The notes beneath the pieces were generated by a model, which saw only the letters and a program-made list of their open reading frames with translations, was not told the origin of the DNA and did no database searches. A stretch of DNA of 64,000 nucleotides from a virus. Its lineage: Duplodnaviria > Caudoviricetes. The DNA lies in IMG/VR virus record IMGVR_UViG_2843291059_000004, positions 70,479 to 134,478 of that record; one strand, written 5' to 3'. Position 1 is the stretch's first letter, and every line of letters starts with the position of its first letter. The translations under genes were made by a program, and so were the position numbers. Positions 546 through 39,436 of the stretch are shown piece by piece.

Positions 546-636
546 GAACTGCTATTTGTAAAAGCCTGCTTTTATATTTTCCCTTTAGCTATACATTACA
601 GGATACATTCAAAAAGAACATGGAGGTGACTGCCGA

Positions 637-3420
637 ATGGCAAAGCAGCAAACTTGCCAAAAGTTTGTTTTTAAGATCCATACGAAGCGTCTGGTTGAAG
701 CAAAATGGGATTTAACTCTACCATTAGATGAAGCCAGACGAAATCACGAGATTATCTCGTTGGCTGATAGCACTGTTCTACGATGGATTGATGAGTTGAA
801 TGGTGTTACGGATGCAGAGGCTAAGGCACGGAGTATTAAGCGTAGAATTAAGATGTTACGGAATGAACCCTCTTGCTTAGAGAACCGCCGGGAAATTCGG
901 AGATTATACACTGAGCTTGACACAGTTCAGTTCAAACCGGATTATATGTGTCTGGTGGTAGACAAGAAGAATGATTACCGCCGGGCATGTTCTCCTAAAG
1001 GGTTCAAAATCAATGGAATTACATATCGTCGCTTGGTTGGAACCACTGGTGGTGTAAAGAATAGTACGATTGTGTTTGTGAGCGACCGTCTTATTGATGA
1101 TATCCGCAAACGAATCGATAATGGCCGTAACAAGGGAATGGAATTTGTGCCTGCAAAGTTAGAGGCTTATAGAGCCCTTGCTTGCTCTGCTTCTATTCCG
1201 GTCACTGACCCTGATGGTGTACTTGTTATAGATGATTGCTATACGCGCTTTAAAGACCATGTTGTTGTTCTGGACGATGGAGTGTCTGGAGAACCTACGA
1301 TAGTTGAAGATAAGGAACATGATTGTGAGCTGTGTGCGAATGACGGTTTTGGACTCATCAGTTACGACCTTGCACAGCAGTGGAGTGAGGATCTGAAGCT
1401 CCCATCCACCGCGTCTGGCTTCTGCGTGCGGAATGCGTTCTGTAAAGGCATGTTATTTCCCTTCCCTTTCCGCGAGTTCGCTAAGAAGATAGCAAAACAG
1501 AATATGCTAAAAGACGCATGGGGAGATTATCGTGATATAAATAGGATTCAAGTAGTTCTTAGTACCTCTATGTTGAAGCTGTGGGATAGTTATCATAGTT
1601 GTGAGGACTATCTTGAAAACTGTAGAGAGAACCACTATCACTTCTCTGTAACCAAGACTTGTGAGTTGGAGCTTGATGAGGAGCGCAATCTGAATTATCA
1701 GTTTATCCAAAGCTATCAGCTTACGAATGATGAGATTCGTGAGCTTGTAAAGCCGACTTTGGACGAAATCAAGGGCGTCATGGGCGGTGATTGGCGTGAT
1801 GCGTTGCTGTATTTGCGTGGCAGTGGAATGCGTGATGACCCGAATTACATAAACAGTCTGGAAAACGACTATATTAAGGCTCTTATGATTGAGCCAGAAA
1901 TGATTAACGACCCTTATGTGCAGAATCGGATTCGATACTTTATTAAAAAGCGAATCTCTCAGGCAAAAACTGGTGTTGTAAAGGTACGAGGGAATTTTCA
2001 AGTTGCGAGTGGCGATCCATATGCGCTTTGCCAGTCTATGTTTCGGATGGAGGTAACCGGACTATTGAAGGCCGGTGAGGTTTACAGTCGTTTTTGGAAT
2101 GATAGAGACGTCAAGAGGGTTGCTTGTTTTAGAGCTCCTATGAGTCAGATGGCAAATATTCGGTGCATGAATTTGAATGTATCTGATGATTGCCAATACT
2201 GGTATCGCTATATGAAGTCCGTGTTTATCACCAATGCGTGGGATAATATGTGTGCAGCGCTTAACGGTGAAGATTTCGATGCCGACCTTACATTTTCTAC
2301 CGACAATAGAGTCCTCATTGATAAATGGGTAAATGAGCCGGTCGTTCTTTGTGTTCAGCGTAAATGCGAGAAAAAAGTTCCGACCGAAAAGGATTTTATT
2401 GAATCTAATATCAGCGGATTTGGAGATAATATTGGACGTACAACAAACCGAATTACAACGATGTTTGATGTGCGAAGTAAATTTGAGCAAGGTAGTAAAG
2501 AGTACGATGAACTTACGTATCGCATTATCTGCGGACAGCTTTATCAACAGAACGCGATCGACAAAATAAAAGGCGTAGCTACGACAGATATGCCGCAATA
2601 CTGGTATGACAATAAAGCTTGCGCCGTTAAAGATGATGATAATCCTGATACTATCGAGGATAAGAAGTTCTGGAGTAGTATTTGCGCATGGCGTAAGCCA
2701 TACTTCATGAGCTACATCTACCCTGCTCAGATGCGTGATTACAAGCAGTATGTGGCCGCAGCTCGCAAGCGCATCAAGTGGGATGGGTTTGCCGGCCTGG
2801 ATGAGATTATGCAAAAGACCGTCAAGGACGATGTGGATGAAATGGTTATCCAGTATTACCTCTATCGGATGCCGGTCGGAATCAATTCTTGTACCATGAA
2901 TCGTTTATGCTGGACTGTCGAGGATGAATTAGAGGACTTTGAAGAAGAACTCAAGATAAAGCGTAAGTTTGATTATGACTCACTCAAGTCTGGCGTTGAG
3001 TACACCAATTCTCAATACTATGGTATCCGCTCTATTTTTAAGGATTACTTGAGGTTTGCTCGTGGCAACGCAATCCATTCTGGCAACGGAAACAATAATA
3101 AAGAAACCAGCGCAGACCGCAAGGAGCGAATTGCGCTATATCAGGAAAGTATGTTCCGTAATCTTCACGATAAATGTTCCAATGACGATGTGCTTTGCGA
3201 TATTATGCTTGATCTTTGTAAGAAGAATGCATCCAGTATTGCAATCGTCTGGGAACTGTTTCATGATACTTTGATTAAACGCTTATTGGAACGCCATGAC
3301 GGTATGGTGCATTCTCTTGTGCAGGACGAGAATGGCGACATTGAATATGATGGCAAGCGTTTCAAGGATGTGTTGATTAACATGAATAGCAAGGAGGATG
3401 CGGATGATTGTATTGAATGA
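637..3420 (+). CDS. yonO: YonO-like single-subunit (two-barrel, RdRP-family) DNA-dependent RNA polymerase
   Basis: 927 aa; DGFG, KGML, RAP and catalytic loop NGEDFDADL (DxDxD); GGAGGT RBS; lies upstream of SPbeta-like late genes. Confidence 0.85.
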   Translation: MAKQQTCQKFVFKIHTKRLVEAKWDLTLPLDEARRNHEIISLADSTVLRWIDELNGVTDAEAKARSIKRRIKMLRNEPSCLENRREIRRLYTELDTVQFKPDYMCLVVDKKNDYRRACSPKGFKINGITYRRLVGTTGGVKNSTIVFVSDRLIDDIRKRIDNGRNKGMEFVPAKLEAYRALACSASIPVTDPDGVLVIDDCYTRFKDHVVVLDDGVSGEPTIVEDKEHDCELCANDGFGLISYDLAQQWSEDLKLPSTASGFCVRNAFCKGMLFPFPFREFAKKIAKQNMLKDAWGDYRDINRIQVVLSTSMLKLWDSYHSCEDYLENCRENHYHFSVTKTCELELDEERNLNYQFIQSYQLTNDEIRELVKPTLDEIKGVMGGDWRDALLYLRGSGMRDDPNYINSLENDYIKALMIEPEMINDPYVQNRIRYFIKKRISQAKTGVVKVRGNFQVASGDPYALCQSMFRMEVTGLLKAGEVYSRFWNDRDVKRVACFRAPMSQMANIRCMNLNVSDDCQYWYRYMKSVFITNAWDNMCAALNGEDFDADLTFSTDNRVLIDKWVNEPVVLCVQRKCEKKVPTEKDFIESNISGFGDNIGRTTNRITTMFDVRSKFEQGSKEYDELTYRIICGQLYQQNAIDKIKGVATTDMPQYWYDNKACAVKDDDNPDTIEDKKFWSSICAWRKPYFMSYIYPAQMRDYKQYVAAARKRIKWDGFAGLDEIMQKTVKDDVDEMVIQYYLYRMPVGINSCTMNRLCWTVEDELEDFEEELKIKRKFDYDSLKSGVEYTNSQYYGIRSIFKDYLRFARGNAIHSGNGNNNKETSADRKERIALYQESMFRNLHDKCSNDDVLCDIMLDLCKKNASSIAIVWELFHDTLIKRLLERHDGMVHSLVQDENGDIEYDGKRFKDVLINMNSKEDADDCIE

Positions 3421-25611: not shown

Positions 25612-25741
25612 AAGCCATCTTTTATGAGAATTTATTTGGAATAAAATTCAATGAGAGGAGGGCTGGCTTTAAGGAGCTGGCCGCTTCTCTTTTTTGTTTT
25701 GAAAGGAATGTTGAAAATGGAAAAGAGAGGTGACCAACGGT

Positions 25742-28147
25742 ATGGCGGATAACACAAACACCGTAAGTAGTGCTGATACTTCCTCTGTAACGGCCATAAA
25801 GGTCAAGGTCGTTCTTGATACGAGTAAAGCAGAACTCGATAAGCAATTCGAGTCCGTCAAAGAAAAATATAAAAATAGTCCGATTAAGCTGGCCTTTGGG
25901 TTGAATCAGAATGAGACCGCAAAGAACATCAATACCGCTTTGCGTAGTATGATTTCAAGCGGAAAAATCATCACCCCGAAGGTAACGCTTGATGTCAAGA
26001 TTGACCAGAGCAAAGTAACCGCACAGTTAAAGAAAGCTATGGCTTCTGCGGCCAAGCAGACGGTTAAGGTCAACACTGGGAGCGTAAAAAATAGCGCTAA
26101 AGCAAATTCGTCAGATGATGAATTTCAAAAACTTTATCAGCTTGAACAGAAACGAGCAAAACTTCTGGTCGATTCAGCCGCATTAACTGCAAATGGTAAG
26201 AAAGAATCAGAACTTAAAGCTGTAAATGATGAGCTGACTAAAACAAATACTCAGATGAAAGAACTATATAAGAATATAAAAAATGTTCTTTCTGAAAAAC
26301 AAAAATTACAGCTAACAAACATGGATTCCGATGCGCAATTCAAGGCAAGCAGGAAAACATTGAATGGCACAGATAATGCAACTCAAGAGCTAAAAAAACA
26401 GCAAAAAGCAACCGAAGATGACTTAAAACGCACCCTAAAGCAGCAAGAATCTATTTATGAAAATCGTAGAAAGCAAATTCAGGCTCTTGAGAATTATGCC
26501 AAGAATAACTCCAATTATAAAAATTCCAATATTCAAACTTATTTATATGGTGAAGACGGCACTGGTAATACATCTGGCAAAATAAAAGAGCTTCGAGAAC
26601 AGTTATCTCTTATTGAAAATACAGATCCGAGCAAGGCTGTTAAAGACTTTGATAAAAATTGTAAAGCACTTGATGGAACGCTCAATTCTACGAGTCAACA
26701 TCTGAAAGAGCTTGGGTTTGATTTTAGAGATTTAAAGCAAGCCAATGTTGACATGACAAAATTCAAAAGTGTCTACGAACGCGCAACAAAGTTAGAAAAC
26801 TCGATTTCAAATAAAAGCAAATATTCTTTCTTGATTGATAGCATAAATGGCATAAAATCGGCAGCATCTGGTTGTGAAGGCGATGTGACCGAACTCAGCG
26901 CAAGACTATCAAGCCTTGAGGTCGAAGCCAACAGATGTGGTGCGACAACTGAAACTTTAAGTCAAAAGCTGTCTCGTCTATTTAAGGAACACTTCCAGAC
27001 TGCCGTTGCAATGTATGGCGTTGCTATGGTTAAGCAGGGTCTGCGAGAGGTTTATAATAATGTCGTAGAGATAGACACATCTATGACTAACTTAAAAAAA
27101 GTCACAAATGAAACTGAATCGGCATACTCAAGCTTTTTGTCGTCTGCTTCAAGTCAGGCGCGTGAGCTTGGCGCTTCTATCTCGGATGTTATTGATAGTA
27201 CAGCAGAATGGTCTCGTCTAGGCTATACACTGGACGAATCACAAGAGCTTGCAAAGTGGTCCACTGTCCTAAGTAACATTGGTGATGGAATTGATAGTGC
27301 ATCTGACGCAGCTTCTTATCTAGTCTCTATTCTAAAGGGATTTAGAATGGAAGCTGACGAAGTAGAACACGTCGTCAATGTTCTTAACTCGGTGGGTAAC
27401 AACGAACCCATCTCCGAAAGTGGTATTGCGGAGGCACTCGTAAGATCGGCAAGTGCATTATCGGCAGCCGGGAACTCGTTTGAAGAGTCCGTTTCGTTGA
27501 TTAGTGCAGCCAACTCTGTACTTCAGGACCCGGATACCGTAGGCACAACTTTGAAAACAATTTCAATGTATCTGCGAGCCAGTAAGACAGACGCGGAGGC
27601 ATTTGGTGTTTCAGTTGATGACATGGCAGATTCTGTTTCGGAACTTCGAAGCGAGTTGAAGTCTCTGACTGGCGTTGACATTATGAAGGATTCCGCCGGT
27701 ACAGAATTTAAGAGTACATATCAGATCCTAAAAGAGATTTCTGCCGTATGGGATAAACTTACTGATGTTAGTAAAGCTAACGTCACAGAGATGCTTGGTG
27801 GCAAAAGAAACTCGAATGCGGTACTTTCCGTGATCGAGCAATTCTCCATTGCTGAAAAATCAATGGAGGATGCCGCTAACAGTTCTAATTCGGCAATGAC
27901 CGAACAAGAGCGTATGATGGACTCAATTGAGGGTCGTTTAAAGCGGCTTAACGCCAGCTTTGAGAAATTCTCAAACGACGTTCTAAGTAGTGATCTAGTC
28001 AAGTTCTTTGTGACTCTTGCTACGAAGATTGTTGACGCAGCAGACGGGATGGTTAATCTTGCAGGTTCTATTCCGGCCATTACAGCTGCCATCTCTGGCG
28101 TGTTGTCTGTAATGCAGATGAGCGGAAAGCTCAAGAATGGTGCGGGT
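25742..28147 (+). CDS. tail tape measure protein, exon 1 (802 aa, TP901-type core)
   Basis: GAGGTG RBS; EIDTSMTNLKKVT, VGTTLKTISM tape-measure motifs; ends KNGAG at GGT| 5' splice site. Confidence 0.9.
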
Positions 28148-28640
28148 AAAGTTAATATGCCCTCTTATATTTGTTGTGTATAAAAAATATAGGATGCGGC
28201 ACCATGTAAAAATAAAATAGCCCCTAGAGTGCTGGGAAACCCTAAGAGCCATATCGCCTATATTTATATAATGTAGGAATCGAAAGATAGAAACAAGGAT
28301 ATGGATGCTATATGCTGAGATAAAAGCTCGGTTTTATCGTATTGTTAAAATATGGTAATAATTGAGTGCTAAGTAGTATTTACAATGGGCGGTCAGCAGC
28401 CGATCCACTCCCCTATTATATAATGTAGGAGAGCGGAAGGTTCATCGACTAAAAAGGGTCAGTGAGCAACCACTGGAAGGATAGTCAGTTCTGGACGAAA
28501 GTTCAGAAGTCCACCTCAGACGTAACCAGACGACTTAAAGAAGTAGGTGGAATGAGGAGACACGCTGTTCTCTGGCGCGATACAAGTAAGAGAAAAATGA
28601 TTGAATAATTGAACAAAAAGAAAAAGTACACTGTTGTTCG

Positions 28641-28669
28641 TTGACAGCGTACTCTAAAAAGTGTATAAT
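28641..28669 (+). promoter_or_regulatory. consensus sigma-A promoter for the putative antitoxin sRNA
   Basis: TTGACA-17-TATAAT. Confidence 0.85.
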
Positions 28670-28674
28670 AAAAA

Positions 28675-28790
28675 CAGCCAAGGACTCCTATAGACGAAGC
28701 CCTCGGTGAACAGTTTAAAATGCAATGTAAATGCTTGGACACATTCACATCACAGAAAGAGCCACCTACTGCTAATAGGCGGCTCTTTTA
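28675..28790 (+). ncRNA. putative type I antitoxin sRNA (~115 nt)
   Basis: Lies between a consensus promoter and the terminator 28756-28789; contains CATTCACATCAC, complementary to the toxin start region. Confidence 0.6.
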
Positions 28791-28913
28791 CTTATCACGG
28801 CTTTCGCTATGATGATGTAACATCTTGAAAATCTCAAGAAGCGTTTTGACAAAGCCAGCAAAGCCGAAAATCAGCATTGCGACATAGTAGACCGTAGTGA
28901 TCTCAATAGTCAT
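28788..28913 (-). CDS. 41-aa single-TM peptide, putative type I toxin (MTIEITTVYYVAMLIFGFAGFVKTLLEIFKMLHHHSESRDK)
   Basis: GAGGAGTG RBS, hydrophobic N-half with charged tail, long structured 5' leader, own promoter. Confidence 0.7.
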   Translation of the reverse strand: MTIEITTVYYVAMLIFGFAGFVKTLLEIFKMLHHHSESRDK

Positions 28914-29060
28914 TACACATCACTCCTCTCGGTAGACTCACCGAAAGGGAGTAAAAGATATGGCATTCTCCTTCTCGCCTTTCGGCTGAATGGGAGGACG
29001 TTCGCCTATACACGTCTATGAAAGGAAGAAAGTAAACGCGGAATCCTTGACTGCCAGATT

Positions 29061-29090
29061 ATTATACACCCGTCTGTCATATCCTGTCAA
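29061..29090 (-). promoter_or_regulatory. sigma-A promoter for the toxin mRNA
   Basis: TTGACA-18-TATAAT on the minus strand. Confidence 0.75.
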
Positions 29091-29200
29091 TATCACTATA
29101 ATGTAATTTATAATACATAAAAAAGAGATTGCTTTCCTGAAGTTTTCTGGCTATAATATAAGTACAATCGTGTATCCAAAATATATGGAGGTATTTTATT

Positions 29201-29533
29201 ATGGCTAGACCCAAAGGAAGCAAGAACAAAGCAAAGGTTCTTGATGGCGTTGATTATGCAGCGCAGATCGCTGAGAAGAATGCCGCAGCGGAATCTATCG
29301 CTGAAGAAATCGCATCTCTCGGCTCGAATATTGCTGCACTGAATGCTGAGAAAAAAGCAAAAGAAGCAGAGCTGAAAAAACTCAATAAAGAGATTGCAAA
29401 ACTCGAAAAGAAAAAGGCTGATGCCGATGAAAAGATTGCGGCAGAGTTGAATCGCAAAAAGGCAGAAGACATTGTTGCCAACGCACTGGCCAATGGCATG
29501 ACTGCTGAAGATATCGCTGAACTTTTGAAGTAA
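29201..29533 (+). CDS. AT-hook-like/coiled-coil protein (intron cargo)
   Basis: MARPKGSKNK N-terminus; promoter TTGCTT-17-TATAAT 29129-29157; terminator 29550-29587. Confidence 0.8.
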   Translation: MARPKGSKNKAKVLDGVDYAAQIAEKNAAAESIAEEIASLGSNIAALNAEKKAKEAELKKLNKEIAKLEKKKADADEKIAAELNRKKAEDIVANALANGMTAEDIAELLK

Positions 29534-29592
29534 GGTATCATCATAAAACAAAGCCCGACTTCCCTACTACTGGGAGGCCGGGCTTTTGCTAT

Positions 29593-29793
29593 TTAGTCTT
29601 CGAATTTGATAACGCCGCACTGTTTAAGTATGGCTATTATAATTTTAATTGTAGCGCCCATACTTAAACAAATCATATTGGCTATCTGCTCAGTTTGAGA
29701 TTTTCCCTCGAGTCCTCGCATTTTTTGCATTAAAAGATCGATACCGTTGTTCGTTTCAGTCTCTAAGATTTCATTAAATTCTTTATGCGTCAT
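29593..29793 (-). CDS. 66-aa hypothetical protein (intron cargo), paralogue of 31060..31266
   Basis: AAGGAGGT RBS; promoter TTGACA-18-TATAAT 29880-29851. Confidence 0.7.
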   Translation of the reverse strand: MTHKEFNEILETETNNGIDLLMQKMRGLEGKSQTEQIANMICLSMGATIKIIIAILKQCGVIKFED

Positions 29794-29975
29794 AACTGGC
29801 GACCTCCTTTCAGTTGGAATTTTAGCATAGTACATAGTGATTGCTTATCTATTATAGGATATATCGTAATATCTTGTCAATCTCTGTTTTGGATTATTGT
29901 GGAGCCCTGTGTAGCAAAGTTTAGTTGACACTATCTCTGAACCGTGATACACTCTTGTAAAAGGAGTGTTAAATC

Positions 29976-30173
29976 ATGGAAAACAATAAGAAGCATGTGC
30001 CGGATTATGAAATTTCGACTTACAGTAATCGGAAACCGACTGAATATACATATTCAGGGAATGGTAGTTCTGCAAATCCACTGGAAACATATTTGAGAAA
30101 TCATAGCGACAATCATTCAAATTATAATCAAGAAGGAGGAGCAGATGACAGAGATAATCAAACTAATAAATAA
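29976..30173 (+). CDS. 65-aa low-complexity protein (intron cargo)
   Basis: AAGGAG RBS; promoter TTGACA-17-TACACT 29925-29953. Confidence 0.6.
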   Translation: MENNKKHVPDYEISTYSNRKPTEYTYSGNGSSANPLETYLRNHSDNHSNYNQEGGADDRDNQTNK

Positions 30174-30756
30174 TGTAGAGACACTTTTCAATATCTTTGT
30201 TCCAGGTGCTATTTGCGTATGGTGTTACTCTAAGTTATCCTTGCGGAAAATGGAATACCAAGGATATCTCACTCTTAGTATTGCCATTGGTTTCGTAATT
30301 AAATACTGTGTGGATTACGCTGACCGTTTGCTAGGACGGTTTACAATTGCTGGATTTCCGATAATTGTTGTGTACGTTTTAGTTGGAATCATCGGAGCTA
30401 TCATTTTTTATAAAGGAAAGAATTCGATTTGTGTAAGACGCAATGTGTCGAAATTTCTTGGTGTTGACTCTGGTGACAATGTTTGGACAAGGCATCTCGA
30501 TCCAGAAGGAAACTTGCTTACACTCCATATGGATGATGACACATATATTCTTGGATTGTTTGAGAATGCAGACGATGAGTATATTACACTGACGAATTAT
30601 TGCTATGCAAAAACGCCTGCTGGAAAAGATATGGATGAGGCTGCACAAAAGCCATACACTGATGCTGTTTTATGCGTTCCAACAAAGCGAGTTAAGCAAT
30701 TTGAAATTTTGTATCCAAACCCTGAGTCCAAAACTGCAAAGTATGTTCTGCGTTAA
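30145..30756 (+). CDS. 3-TM membrane protein with a C-terminal beta domain (DUF6338-like; intron cargo)
   Basis: IFVPG, three hydrophobic helices, NVW, YILG; terminator 30774-30801. Confidence 0.65.
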   Translation: MTEIIKLINNVETLFNIFVPGAICVWCYSKLSLRKMEYQGYLTLSIAIGFVIKYCVDYADRLLGRFTIAGFPIIVVYVLVGIIGAIIFYKGKNSICVRRNVSKFLGVDSGDNVWTRHLDPEGNLLTLHMDDDTYILGLFENADDEYITLTNYCYAKTPAGKDMDEAAQKPYTDAVLCVPTKRVKQFEILYPNPESKTAKYVLR

Positions 30757-30807
30757 AACAAATACGACCACTACCCTGCTACTTTGTGTAGCAGGGCTTT
30801 TCTTTTG

Positions 30808-30897
30808 TCACCACTCATACCCACAATTCTTACACTTGAACTGTTTGCCGGGCTTTCTGCTTGCCCAGCCCCATATTGCTACATCAACCAACTTTGC
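30808..30897 (-). pseudogene. 3' remnant of the Zn-ribbon gene (AKLVDVAIWGWASRKPGKQFKCKNCGYEW*)
   Basis: Aligns with the C-terminus of 32514..32927. Confidence 0.8.
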
Positions 30898-30923
30898 ATT
30901 TTTTAATCGAGGTGAATTCGTAT

Positions 30924-31076
30924 ATGAAAATTGAAATTGAAACAAAAGAACTCACTGCCTTTCTTGACTATATCAAGGGGCAGCGAGAACCTATTGGTAA
31001 CACTCAAGTATTAGCTGAGGAAGTTGTTAAGGGACTGCCTCAAAAAATCACTTCACAACTCAATCTTCGTACTTGA
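30924..31076 (+). CDS. 50-aa hypothetical protein (MKIEIETKEL...; intron cargo)
   Basis: GAGGTG RBS. Confidence 0.6.
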   Translation: MKIEIETKELTAFLDYIKGQREPIGNTQVLAEEVVKGLPQKITSQLNLRT

Positions 31077-31266
31077 GTACACCAATTTTTTCGAGAGTAG
31101 CAACAAGAGATGCGGTGGCGTCTGTGACTGCCATATTGTACGCAGCGGCGACCATTTGCTCAACTGTTATCTTCTTGTCTTCTCTTTCCGACAGAACGTT
31201 GGCAAAATCATTCAGATTCTTCTCGATCTCGTCCTGAAGAATCTTATTAAATTCTTCTCTAGTCAT
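31060..31266 (-). CDS. 68-aa hypothetical protein (intron cargo), paralogue of 29593..29793
   Basis: AGGAGG RBS; MTREEFNKIL...GVLKYED versus MTHKEFNEIL...GVIKFED. Confidence 0.75.
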   Translation of the reverse strand: MTREEFNKILQDEIEKNLNDFANVLSEREDKKITVEQMVAAAYNMAVTDATASLVATLEKIGVLKYED

Positions 31267-31358
31267 TGTAGTCTCCTCCTTTCTTCTAGTCTTTATTTAA
31301 GTCTACCATAAAAAGACAAAATGTAAAGAGAACGGGAGGTCACATTTGACGTAGAATG

Positions 31359-31660
31359 TTAGAACTCATACCCACATGCCTTACATTTAAACTGCTTTCC
31401 AGGTTTCTTACTCGCAAATCCCCAAATTGCTACATCAACCAGTTTAGAGCCTGCACCTATTTTGTCGAGATGGGGGCATCCGCAGACGGGGCATTTTGGG
31501 GTGTAAACAGGTTTTGCTACTTCTGGAGTTTTGGTTTCAGCGCCTCTTCCCTCTCGGCTCTCACCTTAGCGTCAAAATCGTTAAAGTCTTTTTCGAGTTG
31601 GCTATCACCATCAAACGGATTTGTTACCACACGTCTTGGTTCGCCAGAGCCATAATCAGA
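31359..31660 (-). pseudogene. 5'-truncated, frameshifted copy of the Zn-ribbon gene
   Basis: ..NDFDAKVRAEREE / PVYTPKCPVCGCPHLDKIGAGSKLVDVAIWGFASKKPGKQFKCKACGYEF*; frame change near 31520. Confidence 0.8.
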
Positions 31661-31697
31661 GACACGTTAATTCACATCCTTTTCTTTGGAGGTATTT

Positions 31698-31919
31698 ATG
31701 TATTATTTTGCACATTACGAAAAAGATCAAAACTATTTTGCGTCTGATTGTAATAACTCAAAGGACGGAAGTGTTGAAGCTAAAATTTGGAACAAAGGAA
31801 CTCATTCTTGGGAGCAGAAATGTTTTTCTGCGTTCGAAGAATTCAAAGCTTTTACGGATCAACTATGTATGGCTGACGAGGGATCTCTGTCACGCGGTAA
31901 GATTCAGTATCATCTATGA
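31698..31919 (+). CDS. 73-aa hypothetical protein (intron cargo; 3' end overlaps the convergent gene)
   Basis: GGAGGT RBS, ATG 31698. Confidence 0.5.
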   Translation: MYYFAHYEKDQNYFASDCNNSKDGSVEAKIWNKGTHSWEQKCFSAFEEFKAFTDQLCMADEGSLSRGKIQYHL

Positions 31920-32496
31920 CGATTAAATCGACTTCTTCACTTACGGAGTCATATTTCTTTGCGGTCAAAGAAGTCATTTTCTTTACGAAGTCAACCATAT
32001 TAGAGAAGTCCATATTACTAATATCGTAGTTGCCTTTATGAAACTCTTCTGTGTATACGTCGTGCATTCCAGATGCCACAGCATAGTCTATCCCAATATT
32101 GGGGTGAACTATTTTACTACTTGTGTCTGTATAAAGAATGACGTTATTTCCATCTTCAATAGCCGCATCGATTAGGTAAACAATATTTTTGCTGGTTCTT
32201 GCTGATAATTCCTGTAAGAGAAAATTGAGCTCTTCTTTTACGGACATTAACATCATGTCAGAAATTTTTAAGAGGTCAAGAATTACAATATGTGTTTTCT
32301 GTTTATTATCTAATTCGCCAGCTCCGGTGAATGCAACTGCGTGACCTTGTTTGGTTAGGTAAGATTTCTGAGCAAAGTTGTCGTGCCATTCTTCCACTAT
32401 TTTATTAGTATCAGGGTCCGTTAGTGTAATTGTTGTACACACATCAGTGGATACAACAATACCGTTTTTGTTACAGACAGCTAGTGCTAGAGACAT
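31852..32496 (-). CDS. Ntn-hydrolase/proteasome-beta-like protein (intron cargo)
   Basis: MSLALAV..GIVVSTD N-terminus, K..G.AVAFTG, ASG, SVS..VD pattern. Confidence 0.55.
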   Translation of the reverse strand: MSLALAVCNKNGIVVSTDVCTTITLTDPDTNKIVEEWHDNFAQKSYLTKQGHAVAFTGAGELDNKQKTHIVILDLLKISDMMLMSVKEELNFLLQELSARTSKNIVYLIDAAIEDGNNVILYTDTSSKIVHPNIGIDYAVASGMHDVYTEEFHKGNYDISNMDFSNMVDFVKKMTSLTAKKYDSVSEEVDLIVIDDTESYRVTEIPRQPYIVDP

Positions 32497-32513
32497 TCTA
32501 ATTCACTTCCCTC

Positions 32514-32927
32514 TTACCATTCGTAACCACAGTTATCGCAATGAAACTGAACTCTAGGCTTACGCGCCAGCAGTCCCCAAACGGCGGCGTCAACTAATTT
32601 TGCCGTGGTTGATACTTTGTGAATGTTGGGGCTATGACAGGTTGGGCAGGTAGGCACATACTTCGGATGTTCTTTCTCCTCCAAATCGGCTCTATATTGA
32701 GCGTCAAAGGCATTGGCTTTATCTTGCATCTCTTTAACAAAATTCGGGTCTAATTCTGAGATATCTCTTTTGGGTCTGTTTGTAAACCTCCAATTGATTT
32801 TTTTCTGCTCGCTCATTCCGTTCCATTGAGGCAATAGAATAGTATCTCTCAAACAAAACGCGCACAACAAATCTCTTTTATGGTAATATTTGTCGCAAAA
32901 TGGGCAATACCGTACATATTCTTCCAT
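32514..32927 (-). CDS. double zinc-ribbon protein (intact copy; intron cargo)
   Basis: CPFC..CAFC and CPTC..CDNCGYEW; GAGGAG RBS. Confidence 0.8.
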   Translation of the reverse strand: MEEYVRYCPFCDKYYHKRDLLCAFCLRDTILLPQWNGMSEQKKINWRFTNRPKRDISELDPNFVKEMQDKANAFDAQYRADLEEKEHPKYVPTCPTCHSPNIHKVSTTAKLVDAAVWGLLARKPRVQFHCDNCGYEW

Positions 32928-32950
32928 GATTTCTCTTCTCCTCGAAATCG

Positions 32951-35900
32951 ATATTAACTTTCTTCACGGTAGATGCTAACATTCAAAAGTTACAAATTCA
33001 GACATTTTCTAAAATAAAAGCGTCTCTTGTTGACTTAATCGCGCAATACAAAGCATACAAAAAGGCTTTGGGCGAGACAAATCTTTCCATATCTGATTTT
33101 ATCAAATGGCTAATCTCTGGTCAAGCCCCAATTGATGCTACGAAGTTAAAGATTTTGGCTCTTCGTGGTGCTGCGTTACTTTTGAATATGGCCCTTGGTG
33201 TTGTTACTGGGCTTGTAGTTTCCTCTCTTATTGGTGCGATTACAAGCTATACACAGCGGATTGATACAGCAGCTACAAAAACGAAAGAAGCTGCTGATGC
33301 GGCCAACAACACGACTTCTTCCTTGAAGGATTTAGTCGATGCCTACAAAGAACTTGGTGACAAGTCTGGTTGGAGTACAGAAGATTTTGACCAAGCAAAG
33401 GATATCCAAGAGGAGCTTTTGGCTCTTGCAAAAGAACAAGGCACTCTTGACGAAAACAAAGCAAATCAGCTTGATCTTCAAAATGGAAAATATGAAGAAC
33501 AACTTGGTTTGCTGAAGGATATCACGGAAGAACAGCTCAAAGATTCCGAGTCGAAGTTGATGCAATCCAAGGATGCTCAAAGCAATAAGCTAGTTAAAAC
33601 AGCAAAAGATAACAATCGCTCTCATTTCTTTAGTTCTATTTCTGCAAATGCCAACCTTGGTATTATGAATGAGTTAAAGGATGCGGGGATTGATGTATTC
33701 AATAAGAGCGGTGATTTTGGCGTAAAAGACCTTAATAGTCCAGATTCTATTGCAAAGTATTATTCCGAACTTGGTAGAGCTTTAGATTATATTGTTCAAA
33801 ATACAACTGAAGCACAAAGAGCAGCCGGAGGTGCGTATCATACTGTTTATCAGTATTTAATGGATGAAGAAGCCGCACTTCATGATGATGTGGATGCTTA
33901 CAATGATTCTACCGATGCCATCAACAATAATACGAATGCTCGTAGAAAGCTTCAAGCTGTAGATTTTTGGCAGAATGACAATAATAACAGTATGGATGTT
34001 AGCTTTACTTTTGATAAAGTAAATTCTGCCGTTCAAACACTGGAAGATACAATTGATGGGTTTGATGCTAGTAAACTAAATGAACTCTTATGGGGTACAA
34101 ACGAAGGATTGTCTGATGAGCAAGCTCAAGCTCTCGCAAATCTTCGTAAGGCTCTAACCGACATGGACTTCTCCGCTGATACAAACGGCGTGAATGCGTT
34201 TATCCAAGCACTTGTTCAAGTTGGTATTGTAGCTCAGTCTTCTGCAAATGATGTTGATGCGGTAGCACAAGCTTCTCAGAAGATGGAGGATATCTCCTCT
34301 AAGATTGATGAGATTCAGACTGCTTATAAGAATGCGACCACCGCTATTGAGGAGTACAATAAATATGGCTATTTGAGTGCGGACACACTCCAAACTCTTC
34401 TTAATGAAGACTTCGAGTATCTGAGTTGTCTCGAACTCGTTGATGGTCAGCTTCAGGTGAATACCGAGAAGTATCAGGGTATGATTGCCGCTCAGTATCA
34501 GTCTGCGGCCATGGCTCTTGTTGAGAAAGCAAATGCGGAGCTTGCAAAGATTGCTCAGGGCGAAAAGAAGGATGCAGTCGAGGATGCAACCAAGGCAACA
34601 GAAGACCAAGCAACAGCTTTGACTGAACGGGTCTGTCCTGCCCTTGGCGAGTTTGCAAAAGCATCTATGACAGCCGCTGCAGCACAAGAGTTCTTGGCAA
34701 ATGGAGATGCAGCATGGTCTGTTGACCCAGAAAGGACTAAAGAGGTCTATGCTGGCCTTGCTTCTGGTTTAGATATTTTGGACGCAACTGTTGACCAAAT
34801 TATGGGCAATTCGGATAAGTTCCGTCAGCACATGAATGGTTTTGATAAGGAAACCAAGAACCGGAATAAGAATACTGCCAAATCTGTAACTGATGTAGCT
34901 TCTGCCTTCGATACCTTAAATAAGGCAATGAAGGAGTATAACCAGTATGGTTATCTGTGTGCTGACACAGCAAAGTCTTTGATTGGTCTGGATGATAAGT
35001 TCACGGCTTGCCTAACAAAGCAAGGCGATAAGCTCCAAATCAATGTAGAGCAGTTCCGTAAGTTTGTGAAAGAACAACTCAAAGAAGCGAATGCCGCAAA
35101 AGATGGCGGAAAATCAGCTGATGAGATGAATAAAATTCTGAATTATCTTGATCAGAATGTAGATACAACAACCATCTCTTTTGAGCAGCTGACTGACGCT
35201 ATCAAGGGTTACGGCACTGCGATGGATGAAGCCAAGGAAAAGACGGACGCTATAAAATCCGCATTTTCTGACTTATACAGTGTTGGCTTGAATAAGCAAG
35301 ACAACGATTTTGGGTTCTTAGATTCGGATGATATCGAGAAGAAATTCCAAGCTATCCGTAATTTATATGGTAACACAGATTTGTTTACCAATCAAGCATA
35401 TAAAGATGCTTTGAATCCAGAAACCGGTGAGATTGATTACAATAGCGATGCATTCAAGCAGATGTTTGCTGATTATCTCGCAGGGCTTGCAACAACTGCT
35501 CGTGAGACTGGTGGTGAGGCTGGAGAATATCTTGCTCAAGGTTTTGAGGACGCTGCGGCTAAGATCTCTCAGAATGTGATGAGCATTCGCGAGTACATCG
35601 ACGGTATTGGTTCTTCGATTGAACGTGCCAACAATCAGATTGATGGGTTCCAGAGCGCATTTTCTGACATCCAAGACATTGTTAAAGAGTATAATACCTA
35701 TGGTGGTCTGAGCATTGATAATTATCAGAAGCTCATGAGTCTGAGTGACGACCAAATCAAATGCTTGAAACTTGAAGGCGACCAGATCAAGTTTGATACG
35801 CAGCTTTACAAAGAACTCTTCAAATTAAAGATTCAAGCAATGATTGACGAGTATGACAAGGCTGACCAGACAAAAGCTCTTGCTCAACGACTTCGTGAAT

Positions 35901-38900
35901 TACTTGCGGCAGTTGATAAGGCTGGCGATGGATTTACCAGTGCGGCTGATAAGGCCAAGAATTTCGAAGACACCCTTTCGAATATCAAATCACTTTTATC
36001 TGACTTGATTGGTGTCTTTGAACAGTTCAATACGGACAAGTCCAATGACCTCAAGATTCAGGGCGACGCATGGCTTGACGTGATTGACAAGCGAATCGAT
36101 GCACTGAATGAACAGAATGATGCCCAGGAACGAGCCATTGAACTCTCCAAAGCTCAGGACGCACTCGAAAAAGCCAAAGCTAATAAGACTGTCCATGTTT
36201 ATCATGCCGGCGGAAGTGGCTTCGAGTGGGAGGCTGACCAGAACGCCGTTCGTGATGCACAGTCTACACTGGATGACACGATTCGAAAGAACCGCAAAGA
36301 GGACGAGATTGATCGACTGAACAAACTGAAGAAGGCCGTCCAGGAAAATAACGAGCTGATTGGCTCCAGTTTTGAGGATTATGAGAAGAAGAAGAAATAT
36401 CTCGCAGAGTTCGACAAGATGACCTACGATGATATGATTTCTTACAATGAAAATTGGAAAAACTCTATCCTCGGCAATATGAAATCCACACAGGTCGTCA
36501 CGAATGTCAACGAAATTATCACTAAAATTGAGAAGCTGATTACGACACTTGAGACTCTGAATAATGTGCTGACGTGGATTAGTACGCTTGGAAAGAGCAC
36601 AGACGGTGGCGGACTGACTGGTCTGTTTAGCAAGAATGGTCTGTTTGGCAATATCGGTAATTTCATAAGTACAGCGAAAACAAAGGGGCTCGAAACAGCA
36701 GCGAAGGAAGTAATTGGAACATTCCTAGACAATACCGGTGCGGCACTCGAAGCGAATGCAGACAATCCTATCATTAAAGCGGCAACTGGTCTATGGGATA
36801 AGTTAAAGGGAATTTTCTCTGGTAAAATTGTAGCGACAGGCGTTGAAGCTGGTGTGGACGAGACTCTGGCTACTTTGGCGAAAAAAGAAGTCGTTCAAAA
36901 AGGCGCTGGCAATCTACTCACACGGTTCGGTGGAGCTGCGGCGACAACTGGAGCATCTACAGCGGCGACAACTGGAGCAGGAACTGCCACGGTAACTACT
37001 GGTATTTCTTCTATTCCTGTCGTTGGCGCACTTATTGCGGTCGCTGTAAATAACGCTGTTCAGCAATTCGGTAAGATCAGTAAAGAAAACACCAAGATCT
37101 GGGCAGATCAAAATAGCACGACTGGTGAGAAGATCGTAAGCAGTGTTGGTAACGTGCTCTATCACCTCTCCCCTGTTGAGGGTTGGGATAAGTCGGTTCA
37201 ATATGCTAAGATGGCCGCTGAGGGCGAAGGTCTGTGGCAAAAATTAGAATATGGTGCGAAATCCCTATACTATGCGACTGGCCTTGGTACGATGCTGGAC
37301 AATATCTGGAACACCATCAAGAGTATTCTCAAAGTCTTCGGTGTGAAGTTCAAGGAAAGTGGCGATGGTGTCAGCACATCTAGTTCTGTTTCTGGCAAAA
37401 AGGGTGTTGGCTCGTGGAAGATCTGGCCGTGGAACTGGGGCAAAAAGGCAAAAGGCGATAAGAAAATCAAGAAGTCTGCTCCGTACAATGTTGATGAAGA
37501 AGGCGACGAAATTATCGTCCGTAAGCCTCAGACTGGCCGGATGACCTATCTCGAAAAGGGCGACGGTGTTATTCCTGCAAATGAGACTGAGAATCTGATG
37601 ACGATCGGTAAAAACCCGCTCAAGTGGTTGACTGAAAATGTCGGTAAGATTCTTGGCGCTTCTGCCGCGAAAGATGTCGTAGAAGGCAAGGTCGATGAAG
37701 GGGCTGTCACAAAAGCTTCTCAGGTTCTTGCAAGCTCTGTTGTGAACACTTTCTCTTCTGCATGGAATACCGTGAAGATGAGCACAGAAGACCTGATTGA
37801 CTCCATGAATGACTCGTTCCAGGGCGGGTCAACAAGTGTTACGACGGCTGCTGGCACCATTCTTAGCCGAGTCAAGACCATGTTTGGCAAGGCCAATATG
37901 GGGAAACTGTTGGGCAGCTTCAGCTCCGGTGTTTCTGGCGCTATCTCAAAGAGCGCAAAAGAGTATTCTTCTACTACGGAACTGTTGAGTGGTACAAAGA
38001 GCAAAACCATCGACACAATGAACAAGATGCGGTCTACGTTTGAAAGTACGTGGGCTTCTGTGGCAAAAGAGACTGGCGTAAGCAAAGATAAGATCACTTC
38101 GATTAGTTCTGAAATGTTCAGCAAGATGGAAGCCTTGGTGAATCAGACGTACGATGCGATCGACAGCAACGCCGGTATGAGTTCTGACCAACTGAATGAC
38201 ATCACAAAGAGTTTGTTCCAGTCGATGCAGAGCATTTACACTTCTGGTTGGAATGCCGTCTATGCTACTTCTACTGGCATGTCTCAGGAAACCGCAAATA
38301 CACTGAATTCCGCATATAAGTCCTCTTCTGATGGCTGCACCAAGGCAATGGATACCATCCGTAACACGATGGTCGGCAGCTGGGAGCAGTGCGGCGGTGG
38401 CGTTCAGAATTTGGCAAATGGTACCTACCAGACACTGAGTAAAGCATGGGCAGATTCCAGCGGAAGCGCAGAGAAGATGCTCTATGATACCCGTGCCTGC
38501 TTTGATTCTGGCTGGGGTGCTGTGGAACAGGGTGTCAGCAGTTTGGCAAATAACCCGAAAGACAAGCTTTCAACAGCTTGGGCAGAAATTACTTCTCAGA
38601 GTAATGCTACATTTGGTGCGGAAGGTACACTGAAGACCGATGCAGACAATGCTTGGAAGAATGTGGAGCCGGGCGCTACGAACTTGTCGAAGAATATGCA
38701 GTGGACCATGGATCAGGCTTACCTCGCTACAAAGCAGGGCTGCTCTGATACCGTCAATTCTGTCAATACAAACCTTAATTCGACGTCAGCAGGTTTCAGT
38801 GCGATTGCCAGCGCAATTGATGCTGTCAACAAAAAAGCATCCGATTCGGAAGAAGTTGCAAAGAATACAGGACACGCATGGTATGAATGGGTGCTGAATC

Positions 38901-39436
38901 CAGTTGGCACTTTGCTTGACACGGTTACAAAATATAACACAGAAGACAAATCAAAGAACAATTTTTTACAAAATGCTGTTCATACAGTCACACATCCGAT
39001 CAGTTCGGTTGTAGAATCAGTAAAATACCTTGGAAATGCTGCAAAGGATTTCTTTGGTGGTCTATTTGGCAAACACGCTTCCGGCTTAAAGTCTGCATCT
39101 AAGAGTCATTTCGCCAATGTTGACGAGCTTGGCCCTGAGCTTCTGGTTCGTAAGCCACAATCTGGTCGTTACACTTACCTCGAAACTGGTGATGGTGTGG
39201 TGCCTGCTGATATTACATCGAAATTGTTTGAGATGGGTGGCAACCCGAACAAGTGGTTCTCTGAACAGATGGCTAAGTATGGTTCTCAGGCGATTACTAC
39301 GAAGAGCACTGGCAACACCAGTTTCTCGACTGGTAATATTGTGATCAACAATCCTGTTGGCAACTCTGAGGATCTGGCTTCTGAAATCAAGAAGAACTTC
39401 TCGACCCGGATGGCGCAGGAATGGAATAAGCGCTAA
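32951..39436 (+). CDS. tail tape measure protein, exon 2 (2161 aa; spliced product ~2963 aa)
   Basis: Frame open from 32930; no convincing RBS at TTG 33068; helical Ala/Thr-rich with W-periodic repeats; joins as KNGAG|ILTFFTVD. Confidence 0.88.
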   Translation: MLTFFTVDANIQKLQIQTFSKIKASLVDLIAQYKAYKKALGETNLSISDFIKWLISGQAPIDATKLKILALRGAALLLNMALGVVTGLVVSSLIGAITSYTQRIDTAATKTKEAADAANNTTSSLKDLVDAYKELGDKSGWSTEDFDQAKDIQEELLALAKEQGTLDENKANQLDLQNGKYEEQLGLLKDITEEQLKDSESKLMQSKDAQSNKLVKTAKDNNRSHFFSSISANANLGIMNELKDAGIDVFNKSGDFGVKDLNSPDSIAKYYSELGRALDYIVQNTTEAQRAAGGAYHTVYQYLMDEEAALHDDVDAYNDSTDAINNNTNARRKLQAVDFWQNDNNNSMDVSFTFDKVNSAVQTLEDTIDGFDASKLNELLWGTNEGLSDEQAQALANLRKALTDMDFSADTNGVNAFIQALVQVGIVAQSSANDVDAVAQASQKMEDISSKIDEIQTAYKNATTAIEEYNKYGYLSADTLQTLLNEDFEYLSCLELVDGQLQVNTEKYQGMIAAQYQSAAMALVEKANAELAKIAQGEKKDAVEDATKATEDQATALTERVCPALGEFAKASMTAAAAQEFLANGDAAWSVDPERTKEVYAGLASGLDILDATVDQIMGNSDKFRQHMNGFDKETKNRNKNTAKSVTDVASAFDTLNKAMKEYNQYGYLCADTAKSLIGLDDKFTACLTKQGDKLQINVEQFRKFVKEQLKEANAAKDGGKSADEMNKILNYLDQNVDTTTISFEQLTDAIKGYGTAMDEAKEKTDAIKSAFSDLYSVGLNKQDNDFGFLDSDDIEKKFQAIRNLYGNTDLFTNQAYKDALNPETGEIDYNSDAFKQMFADYLAGLATTARETGGEAGEYLAQGFEDAAAKISQNVMSIREYIDGIGSSIERANNQIDGFQSAFSDIQDIVKEYNTYGGLSIDNYQKLMSLSDDQIKCLKLEGDQIKFDTQLYKELFKLKIQAMIDEYDKADQTKALAQRLRELLAAVDKAGDGFTSAADKAKNFEDTLSNIKSLLSDLIGVFEQFNTDKSNDLKIQGDAWLDVIDKRIDALNEQNDAQERAIELSKAQDALEKAKANKTVHVYHAGGSGFEWEADQNAVRDAQSTLDDTIRKNRKEDEIDRLNKLKKAVQENNELIGSSFEDYEKKKKYLAEFDKMTYDDMISYNENWKNSILGNMKSTQVVTNVNEIITKIEKLITTLETLNNVLTWISTLGKSTDGGGLTGLFSKNGLFGNIGNFISTAKTKGLETAAKEVIGTFLDNTGAALEANADNPIIKAATGLWDKLKGIFSGKIVATGVEAGVDETLATLAKKEVVQKGAGNLLTRFGGAAATTGASTAATTGAGTATVTTGISSIPVVGALIAVAVNNAVQQFGKISKENTKIWADQNSTTGEKIVSSVGNVLYHLSPVEGWDKSVQYAKMAAEGEGLWQKLEYGAKSLYYATGLGTMLDNIWNTIKSILKVFGVKFKESGDGVSTSSSVSGKKGVGSWKIWPWNWGKKAKGDKKIKKSAPYNVDEEGDEIIVRKPQTGRMTYLEKGDGVIPANETENLMTIGKNPLKWLTENVGKILGASAAKDVVEGKVDEGAVTKASQVLASSVVNTFSSAWNTVKMSTEDLIDSMNDSFQGGSTSVTTAAGTILSRVKTMFGKANMGKLLGSFSSGVSGAISKSAKEYSSTTELLSGTKSKTIDTMNKMRSTFESTWASVAKETGVSKDKITSISSEMFSKMEALVNQTYDAIDSNAGMSSDQLNDITKSLFQSMQSIYTSGWNAVYATSTGMSQETANTLNSAYKSSSDGCTKAMDTIRNTMVGSWEQCGGGVQNLANGTYQTLSKAWADSSGSAEKMLYDTRACFDSGWGAVEQGVSSLANNPKDKLSTAWAEITSQSNATFGAEGTLKTDADNAWKNVEPGATNLSKNMQWTMDQAYLATKQGCSDTVNSVNTNLNSTSAGFSAIASAIDAVNKKASDSEEVAKNTGHAWYEWVLNPVGTLLDTVTKYNTEDKSKNNFLQNAVHTVTHPISSVVESVKYLGNAAKDFFGGLFGKHASGLKSASKSHFANVDELGPELLVRKPQSGRYTYLETGDGVVPADITSKLFEMGGNPNKWFSEQMAKYGSQAITTKSTGNTSFSTGNIVINNPVGNSEDLASEIKKNFSTRMAQEWNKR

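Follow-up and report, generated by a model that had tools for sequence, protein, structure and literature searches.

A candidate seven-base-pair stem closing the cargo loop of a group I intron in the tape-measure gene of an SPbeta-like phage

The DNA analyzed here, referred to as the window, is a stretch of 64,000 nucleotides (nt) covering positions 70,479 to 134,478 of the IMG/VR virus record IMGVR_UViG_2843291059_000004, a 134-kb SPbeta-like phage. In this phage the gene for the tape-measure protein (TMP) is interrupted by 4785 nt which, judging from the sequence features described below, is a group I intron. An initial annotation, made from the sequence alone, had proposed that a long-range stem closes the cargo loop of this intron and brings the 3' splice site back to the ribozyme core, and that the 3' strand of the stem doubles as the ribosome-binding site (RBS) of the first antisense cargo gene. 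The features of the locus, in window coordinates, are as follows.

25730 to 28165, plus strand: tape-measure exon 1, 812 amino acids (aa), ending in ...AAU AUG CCC UCU; from the list of open reading frames (ORFs) and homology to the TMPs of phages Sundance and PMBT24.
28166 to 32950, plus strand: putative group I intron, 4785 nt, with the ribozyme at the 5' end, a multi-gene cargo and a terminal G at 32950.
28161 to 28196, plus strand: P1, formed by the exon end CUCU and intron UAUAU with the guide AAUAUAGGAUG; U28165.G28192 is the 5' splice site.
28166 to 28597, plus strand: conserved ribozyme part, P1 to P9.2 plus an A-rich tail; from alignments and identities.
28490-96/28501-07 and 28511-16/28545-50, plus strand: P9 and P9.1, the latter with two inner hairpins; from RNAalifold and pair counts.
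28554 to 28560, plus strand: GAGGAGA, 5' strand of the candidate closing stem, in the linker between P9.1 and P9.2.
28561-67/28573-79, plus strand: P9.2 hairpin, 7 base pairs (bp), loop UUCUC, beginning right after GAGGAGA.
28580 to 28597, plus strand: A-rich tail AUAYAARURRGAGAAAA, containing the 5' strand (28588-95) of a second proposed helix.
28598 to 32513, both strands: variable cargo of about ten small genes, differing in length and content between relatives.
32514 to 32927, minus strand: terminal gene, antisense to the intron; its 137-aa product is a double Zn-ribbon protein carrying two CxxC pairs at either end.
32930 to 32936, plus strand: UUUCUCU, 3' strand of the second proposed helix; on the minus strand, the spacer between Shine-Dalgarno sequence (SD) and ATG.
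32937 to 32943, both strands: UCUCCUC, 3' strand of the candidate closing stem; its complement is the predicted SD of the terminal gene.
32944 to 32950, plus strand: linker GAAAUC, variable in length and sequence among relatives, and the invariant terminal G.
32951 to 39436, plus strand: tape-measure exon 2, 2161 aa; its frame is open from 32930, and alignments with relatives begin at exon-2 residue 1.

The order of an integrase, a small gene and a very long tape-measure gene resembles that of Brevibacillus phage Sundance and Enterocloster phage PMBT24, as do the proteins encoded in the window. The host of the SPbeta-like phage is probably Faecalibacterium, and an uncultured Faecalibacterium metagenome-assembled genome (MAG) carries a near-identical copy of the intron. 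In both Sundance and PMBT24 the TMP is encoded by one unbroken gene. In the window, the reading frame meets a stop soon after 28165 and is open again from 32951. Joining 28165 to 32951, at codon boundaries on both sides, restores a single uninterrupted TMP of 2973 aa, and its alignment with the TMP of PMBT24 is continuous through the junction. The final 12 nt of exon 1 are the same in all relatives, and the first ~12 nt of exon 2 form a conserved island amid diverged sequence.

The assignment to group I is based on a match to Rfam RF00028 over 28161-28507 (24.6 bits; E value 0.0036), whose score large insertions in P5 and P6 keep below the gathering threshold of 50, and on the pairings at both junctions. 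In P1, U28165.G28192 is flanked by three exon-side and five intron-side pairs, and the pair 28169:28188 varies among relatives between A-U, G-C and G.U. P10 consists of 5 bp between the start of exon 2, AUAUU (32951-55), and A28186-U28190; it is weaker in relatives with the guide AACAU. No conserved complementarity corresponding to P9.0 (last 2 nt with J7/9) was seen in the aligned relatives. The P7-P9.2 region was modelled on an alignment of 39 distinct sequences (28439-28602), in which 99.4% of the cells are paired, against 28-39% with slid partners, and the pairing of P7, P8 and P9 reaches 99-100%. P9.2 shows a compensatory change from G-C to A-U at 28562:28578, while three other pairs display one-sided changes to or from G.U that keep the pairing. 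The A-rich tail is conserved after P9.2 exactly to the point where the variable cargo starts. An extra insertion of ~360 nt in the P6 loop (intron ~240-600) is present in four relatives (L006, L023, L049, L066), the remaining core being unchanged.

Eighty related viral contigs were compared; both exons were located in 75 of them, and the junctions could be aligned exactly in 61. The gap from exon to exon measures 1.85-6.15 kb (75/75). All 61 share one layout, namely the exon-1 end, a conserved 5' part to ~28597, variable cargo, a terminal G that is invariant at the intron junction, and the conserved exon-2 start. Identity to the window is 92-97% in the ribozyme part and 59-99% in the flanking exons and the 3' cargo. 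For the strands of the stem, all loci in hand were used, amounting to 135 5' sites and 153 3' ends. Distant homologues of the ribozyme, sought for covariation, were absent from 50,697 phage records, and no ribozyme homologue was found among 400 other genomes of the host family. An exact-pattern scan of a genome collection recovered only one near-identical intron, in the Faecalibacterium MAG, and scans of viral contigs returned only the same intron at 92-97% identity and no distant homologues.

In the candidate stem (helix 1), the last nucleotides of the P9.1-P9.2 linker, which run exactly up to the start of P9.2, would pair with a site just upstream of the 3' splice site. The initial annotation was accurate in its letters and coordinates for this helix, TGAGGAGA (28553-60) with TCTCCTCG (32937-44), and for a second one, AAGAGAAA (28588-95) with TTTCTCT (32930-36). 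It had also placed the 5' strand correctly, immediately after P9 and P9.1, and the terminal G (32950) 6 nt past 32944. Of its eight pairs in helix 1, a core of seven is invariant on both sides, GAGGAGA in 135/135 5' sites and TCTCCTC in 153/153 3' ends, while the eighth, U28553.G32944, was discarded, as mismatches (C.A and C.U) are frequent among relatives. The pairable block coincides with the conserved block of 7 nt, because the pair 28553:32944 assorts freely and C28561 belongs to P9.2. The two strands flank the whole cargo. The 5' strand follows P9.1; the 3' strand is separated by 6-16 nt from the terminal G and by 4-10 nt from the ATG on the minus strand (38 distinct contexts). The sequence around the 3' strand, that is, the Zn-ribbon gene and exon 2, has diverged almost to noise (~60% identity), and the only conserved islands on this side are TCTCCTC, the terminal G and the exon-2 start. 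In a scan of all 6-mers of the conserved 5' region, GAGGAGA was the only site able to pair with all 21 distinct 3' tails; the site in the A-rich tail (28588-95 region) pairs with about half of them. The 7-bp duplex has a predicted energy of -10.1 kcal/mol. Folding of a cargo-less mini-intron predicts both helices, which follows from the complementarity and adds nothing to it.

The 3' strand lies next to the terminal Zn-ribbon gene, which is intact and is the last cargo gene in all 61 relatives with both junctions placed. The minus-strand GAGGAG noted in the initial annotation is indeed located 10 nt upstream of the ATG of 32927..32514, and GAGGAGA 9 nt upstream in the window. In all 38 contexts a GAGGAGA precedes the ATG by 4-10 nt and no further SD-like run intervenes, which makes it the predicted SD of this gene. 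At least seven N-terminal types of the gene exist, with identities as low as 31%, and the nonsynonymous to synonymous polymorphism ratio, pN/pS, is similar in terminal and internal copies (~0.26 and ~0.29, respectively). Its product belongs to no Pfam or PHROG family, and its AlphaFold model (predicted local distance difference test score 80) has no fold match in PDB at E <= 0.001; the neighbours in the Atlas are unnamed phage and Bacillota proteins. The family is mosaic, with shuffled N- and C-terminal halves. The cargo also holds internal intact copies (e.g., L240:3001-3411), a frameshifted copy and a C-terminal fragment (window 30808-30945 and 31370-31660). Taken together, the sequences suggest repeated cassette exchange via the conserved C-terminal coding region of the Zn-ribbon gene.

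The internal copies provide a control for the part played by translation. Internal intact copies read AAAAGAGAGA, AAAAAAGAGA or AAAAGAGAAA where terminal copies have CGAGGAGAGA, so that GAGGAGA is found in 0/10 distinct internal contexts as compared with 38/38 terminal contexts; the next ~10 nt up to the ATG are common to both groups. A second comparison is offered by a sister family consisting of MT837120.1 (L305) and at least 51 viral contigs (L306-L356) of 140-150 kb. By reading frame, these phages look as if they carry an element at the same TMP position (junctions F1 GKVNMPS|ILTFF and F2 GKPKMTG|ISLYD). This element of ~370 nt (L305 5090-5470) is a structured element different from that of the window intron; it has no RF00028 match, but the group-I-like motifs AAUCCGCAGG and UUCAGAGAG are present. 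Its cargo is variable as well (2.6-5.2 kb) and ends in an antisense gene (L306:6474-7085:+, 204 aa) which has a C-terminal Zn-ribbon domain in common with the gene of the window. No TCTCCTC was found at the 3' ends of the sister family, and GAGGAGA occurs on the 5' side in just one sampled variant. The SD of the sister terminal gene varies (GAGGT, AGGTG, GGGGT, GAGAGGA, GTGGTG) and lies 25-35 nt from the junction. Thus, SDs show ordinary plasticity exactly where the ribozyme has no GAGGAGA partner. Internal copies and the sister family together argue for a constraint on the 7-mer beyond translation. The sister family also keeps its antisense terminal gene without any overlap of stem and SD; the terminal position is therefore independent of the overlap, which weakens the initial annotation's proposal that the gene is anchored at the intron end by the overlap. 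A closing helix for the sister element itself, GGYGGUC : GACCAYY beside the junction, was considered and not confirmed, its 5' variants being uncompensated; the match illustrates how easily 7-bp matches mislead.

Based on the invariance of both strands in all loci, on the single 5' site that fits every 3' tail and its position directly beside the supported P9.2 hairpin, on the two comparisons above, and on the precedents of the IStrons and of the capsid intron of this phage (below), we propose that the 7-bp helix forms and helps to position the 3' splice site, with a probability that we put at roughly 0.55. The corresponding claim of the initial annotation, that the stem returns the 3' splice site to the core, is to that extent supported, short of proof. 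Several points weigh against it. When the last 29 nt of the intron were shuffled and compared with 28508-28600, a Watson-Crick run of at least 7 appeared in 31% of the shuffles and one of at least 8 in 10%; 16% of real 29-nt cargo windows also reach a 7-nt run, and the duplex energy of -18.0 lies at the 31st percentile of the shuffles. With purines abundant in the 5' segment and pyrimidines in the 3' tail, complementarity in a single sequence is unremarkable. A decoy within the cargo, GUCUCCUC (31271-78), pairs over 8 bp with 28554-61, better than the terminal site does, and is itself the SD complement of a 68-aa minus-strand gene (31266-31060). The covariation analysis that the initial annotation had suggested yields no support, since the core never varies in either arm in the sequences examined and the eighth pair, with its freely assorting C.A and C.U, does not covary. 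Near the 5' strand, 112/165 columns are likewise invariant, so that the invariance of this strand says little. Other cargo genes on the minus strand likewise have GAGGAG-type SDs upstream (28914-35 and 31267-85), and strong selection on the SD could explain 6/7 of the invariant positions. Every internal copy of the Zn-ribbon gene has the same upstream neighbour, and the internal copies may therefore descend from one event. Finally, splicing itself was not observed: no RNA run containing the stretch was found, and the exon-exon joint is absent from the contigs of four runs that cover it; a contig of one run guessed to be RNA, the nature of which is uncertain, is unspliced across the 5' junction and counts neither way.

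Several of these points would also fit an explanation in which TCTCCTC is kept solely as the complement of an RBS and the pairing is incidental. In that case, 28554-60 would be conserved for another ribozyme reason (for instance, as a purine-rich linker or in a tertiary role), and the terminal G, P10 and other contacts would choose the 3' site. The chance-level complementarity, the GAGGAG-type SDs of other cargo genes together with the 8-bp decoy, the lack of covariation and the unconstrained flanking pair, a 5' strand conserved no more than its surroundings, and a sister family which retains the terminal antisense gene without such pairing all speak in its favor. It accounts less well for the retention of all seven letters in 38/38 terminal contexts across at least seven gene lineages, when internal copies and sister terminal genes vary as ordinary SDs do, and for the exact coincidence of the conserved and pairable blocks. 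The usual SD of the phage's long ORFs, moreover, is AAGGAGG (11/22 AGGAG-type sites, compared with 1/22 for GAGGAGA), although the argument that GAGGAGA is an unusual SD, which holds for the long ORFs of the window, is weakened by the GAGGAG-type sites of the other cargo genes. On balance, we regard conservation for translation alone as a possible but rather unlikely explanation.

Two further explanations would connect the overlap to gene expression or to a broken transcript. The minus-strand Zn-ribbon mRNA, its ribosomes or its transcription might mask UCUCCUC and the 3' splice site, such that the TMP mRNA would mature only with the cargo gene off, e.g., in lysogeny versus the late lytic phase. 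It is consistent with this that the antisense gene abuts the 3' splice site in all relatives, that the cargo's own consensus promoters fit expression apart from the late operon, and that a promoter-like site directed to the minus strand is present in exon 2 (33096-33124; TTGACC, 17 nt, TG-n-TAAAAT). The promoter match is at consensus level only, however, and the stretch masked by any antisense transcript would greatly exceed 7 nt, making the overlap of stem and SD unnecessary; such a switch appears improbable. The conserved exon-2 island 33092-33124 coincides with this predicted promoter, which is aimed at the Zn-ribbon gene, and also codes for a conserved DFIKW peptide; either could explain its conservation. 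Alternatively, the cargo contains three plus-strand terminator-like hairpins between the core and the 3' end, in addition to consensus sigma-70 promoters on both strands, and the terminators might end a first transcript, with a second one, started inside the cargo, being joined to it in trans through the 7-bp handle. Seven bp (-10 kcal/mol) would be a weak intermolecular handle, and none of the candidate promoters was linked to the 3' piece. In addition, the phage encodes a YonO-like polymerase:

589 to 3417, plus strand: YonO homologue, 943 aa, with a DFDAD motif; directly upstream of a tRNA and the structural gene block.

The product has 25% identity over ~440 aa to SPBc2 yonO, and YonO of SPbeta is the single-subunit RNA polymerase of late genes. 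With such a polymerase encoded, read-through of the cargo terminators is conceivable (PMC5467207), and we consider read-through in cis plausible. Trans-splicing is accordingly the least probable of the explanations considered.

Under the preferred reading, in which the 7-bp helix forms, the TMP pre-mRNA would be transcribed through the 4.8-kb intron, the whole ribozyme of which, P1 to P9.2, lies within the first ~430 nt. The cargo would then be looped out as GAGGAGA (28554-60) and UCUCCUC (32937-43) pair and bring the 3' splice site back, with the 7-bp helix able to stack on P9.2. This would leave a linker of 6 nt, G32950 would dock in the G site, and the AUAUU of exon 2 would form P10 with the guide. 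Read on the other strand of the DNA, these 7 bp would serve as the SD of the Zn-ribbon gene and would then be under two constraints at once.

The second helix of the initial annotation, AAGAGAAA with UUUCUCU, is not conserved. Its 3' strand UUUCUCU occurs only in the CATGATTTCTCT type of 3' end, the window's own, at 9/61 loci, and the spacers of the other types are unrelated; which A/G variant the 5' tail carries is independent of the 3'-end type. We therefore rejected helix 2 (28588-95 : 32930-36) as a general feature, given a single 3'-end type and freely assorting 5' variants; it may add stability in the lineage of the window, as a lineage-specific extra at most. Two local alternatives, a hairpin GGAGA:UCUCU and a pseudoknot between the tail and the P9.2 loop, were dropped because the UCUCU lies inside the supported P9.2 loop and stem.

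Among known systems, the closest likeness is to the IStrons (CdISt1, BcISt1), chimeras of a group I intron and an insertion sequence element, in which the cargo follows P9.2 and inverted repeats lead to a predicted stem just before the 3' splice site (PMC4227781). In group A this stem is 6-10 bp long and of balanced composition; in group B its length is 15-34 bp (Tourasse et al. 2014, PMC4227781). As in the IStrons, the ribozyme of the window intron is 5', all cargo follows the P9 subdomains, and a stem is predicted ahead of the 3' splice site. The cargo, in contrast, is made up of small, variable genes, 2-6 kb in all and encoded on both strands, and no transposase family was found in the eight cargo proteins searched; in the absence of tnpA/tnpB of the IS200/IS605 or IS607 type the element is not an IStron, although its stem would work like that of one. 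The 5' arm in the window also lies upstream of P9.2, which places P9.2 inside the closed loop, and the 3' arm doubles as the SD complement of an antisense gene, whereas IStron ORFs are on the forward strand. By this comparison the stem of the window would be a short version of a known device, and the new aspect is the sharing of its 3' arm, at the level of DNA, with the predicted SD of an antisense gene.

Intron ORFs that overlap helices of the ribozyme ("core creep"), and RBSs held in RNA structure, have been described for endonuclease genes on the sense strand (PMC3073962). I-TevI of the T4 td intron (Edgell, Chalamcharla and Belfort 2011) is similar in that the same nucleotides serve a gene and a splicing helix and the RBS is tied to structure. 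In td, however, ORF and RBS are on the sense RNA, where structure competes with translation, while the gene of the window is antisense and the two uses share only the DNA. In the hexacoral mitochondrial ND5-717 group I intron, many genes reside in a peripheral loop, of 18-19 kb in total (Chi et al. 2019, PMC6545197); there the cargo is located in P8, its content is fixed and of a housekeeping nature, and it is removed by back-splicing of a permuted precursor. The cargo of the window, by comparison, follows P9.2, varies between close relatives and is carried by a phage. Antisense homing-endonuclease genes are found in group I introns of nuclear ribosomal DNA (L2066; PMC9548176), which have in common with the window a protein gene opposite the ribozyme strand. 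Those genes encode His-Cys box endonucleases in eukaryotic ribosomal DNA, whereas the gene of the window is of bacterial type with a predicted SD. The same phage also provides a comparison in its capsid gene:

16506 to ~18085: capsid-gene group I intron, with a sense-strand ORF of 391 aa 3' of the core.

An inverted repeat in this intron (16881-96 / 18053-68; 16 nt, 94% complementary, AU-rich) is clearly beyond chance, and it provides this genome with an evident stem of the cargo-closing type. It resembles the candidate stem as a long-range repeat around an ORF close to the 3' end, and differs from it in that the ORF is on the sense strand and the repeat does not overlap an RBS.

Several observations concern the remainder of the cargo and the split gene. 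The cargo includes decayed copies of the Zn-ribbon gene. Convergent consensus promoters (plus 28641-69, minus 29090-61) and shared terminators surround a 41-aa hydrophobic minus-strand ORF (28913-28788), and the module at 28641-29090 looks like a type I toxin-antitoxin system by its arrangement. A weak match to the Enterococcus small RNA RefA9 was obtained at 28727-87 (29 bits, below the cut-off). All combinations of exon-1 types (aa identity 98%, 62% or 56%) with exon-2 types (from 97% to 34%) were found (L004-L083), and the N-terminus of the Zn-ribbon gene, the 3' intron end and exon 2 are co-inherited among relatives. By this pattern, the intron acts as a joint at which the two halves of the TMP recombine.

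Less expected than the stem are a constant terminal Zn-ribbon gene, a hypervariable multi-gene intron in a TMP gene, and the use of one site by two different ribozymes. We speculate, as a long shot, that the TMP site is a dedicated "cargo bay" of two unrelated self-splicing elements, that the terminal Zn-ribbon protein is a maintenance or mobility factor, and that its RBS is fused with the splice-site helix, coupling expression of this factor to maturation of the TMP mRNA. If so, the locus would switch between two states, one in which cargo is carried and expressed and one in which tails are built. The helix, if real, would mean that a phage ribozyme tolerates kilobases of exchanged cargo while only 7 nt at the far end are kept, and that these are shared with a gene on the opposite strand. 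It would explain how cargo is shuffled between relatives without breaking an essential tail gene, and would give a simple rule by which self-splicing introns could be designed to carry genes.

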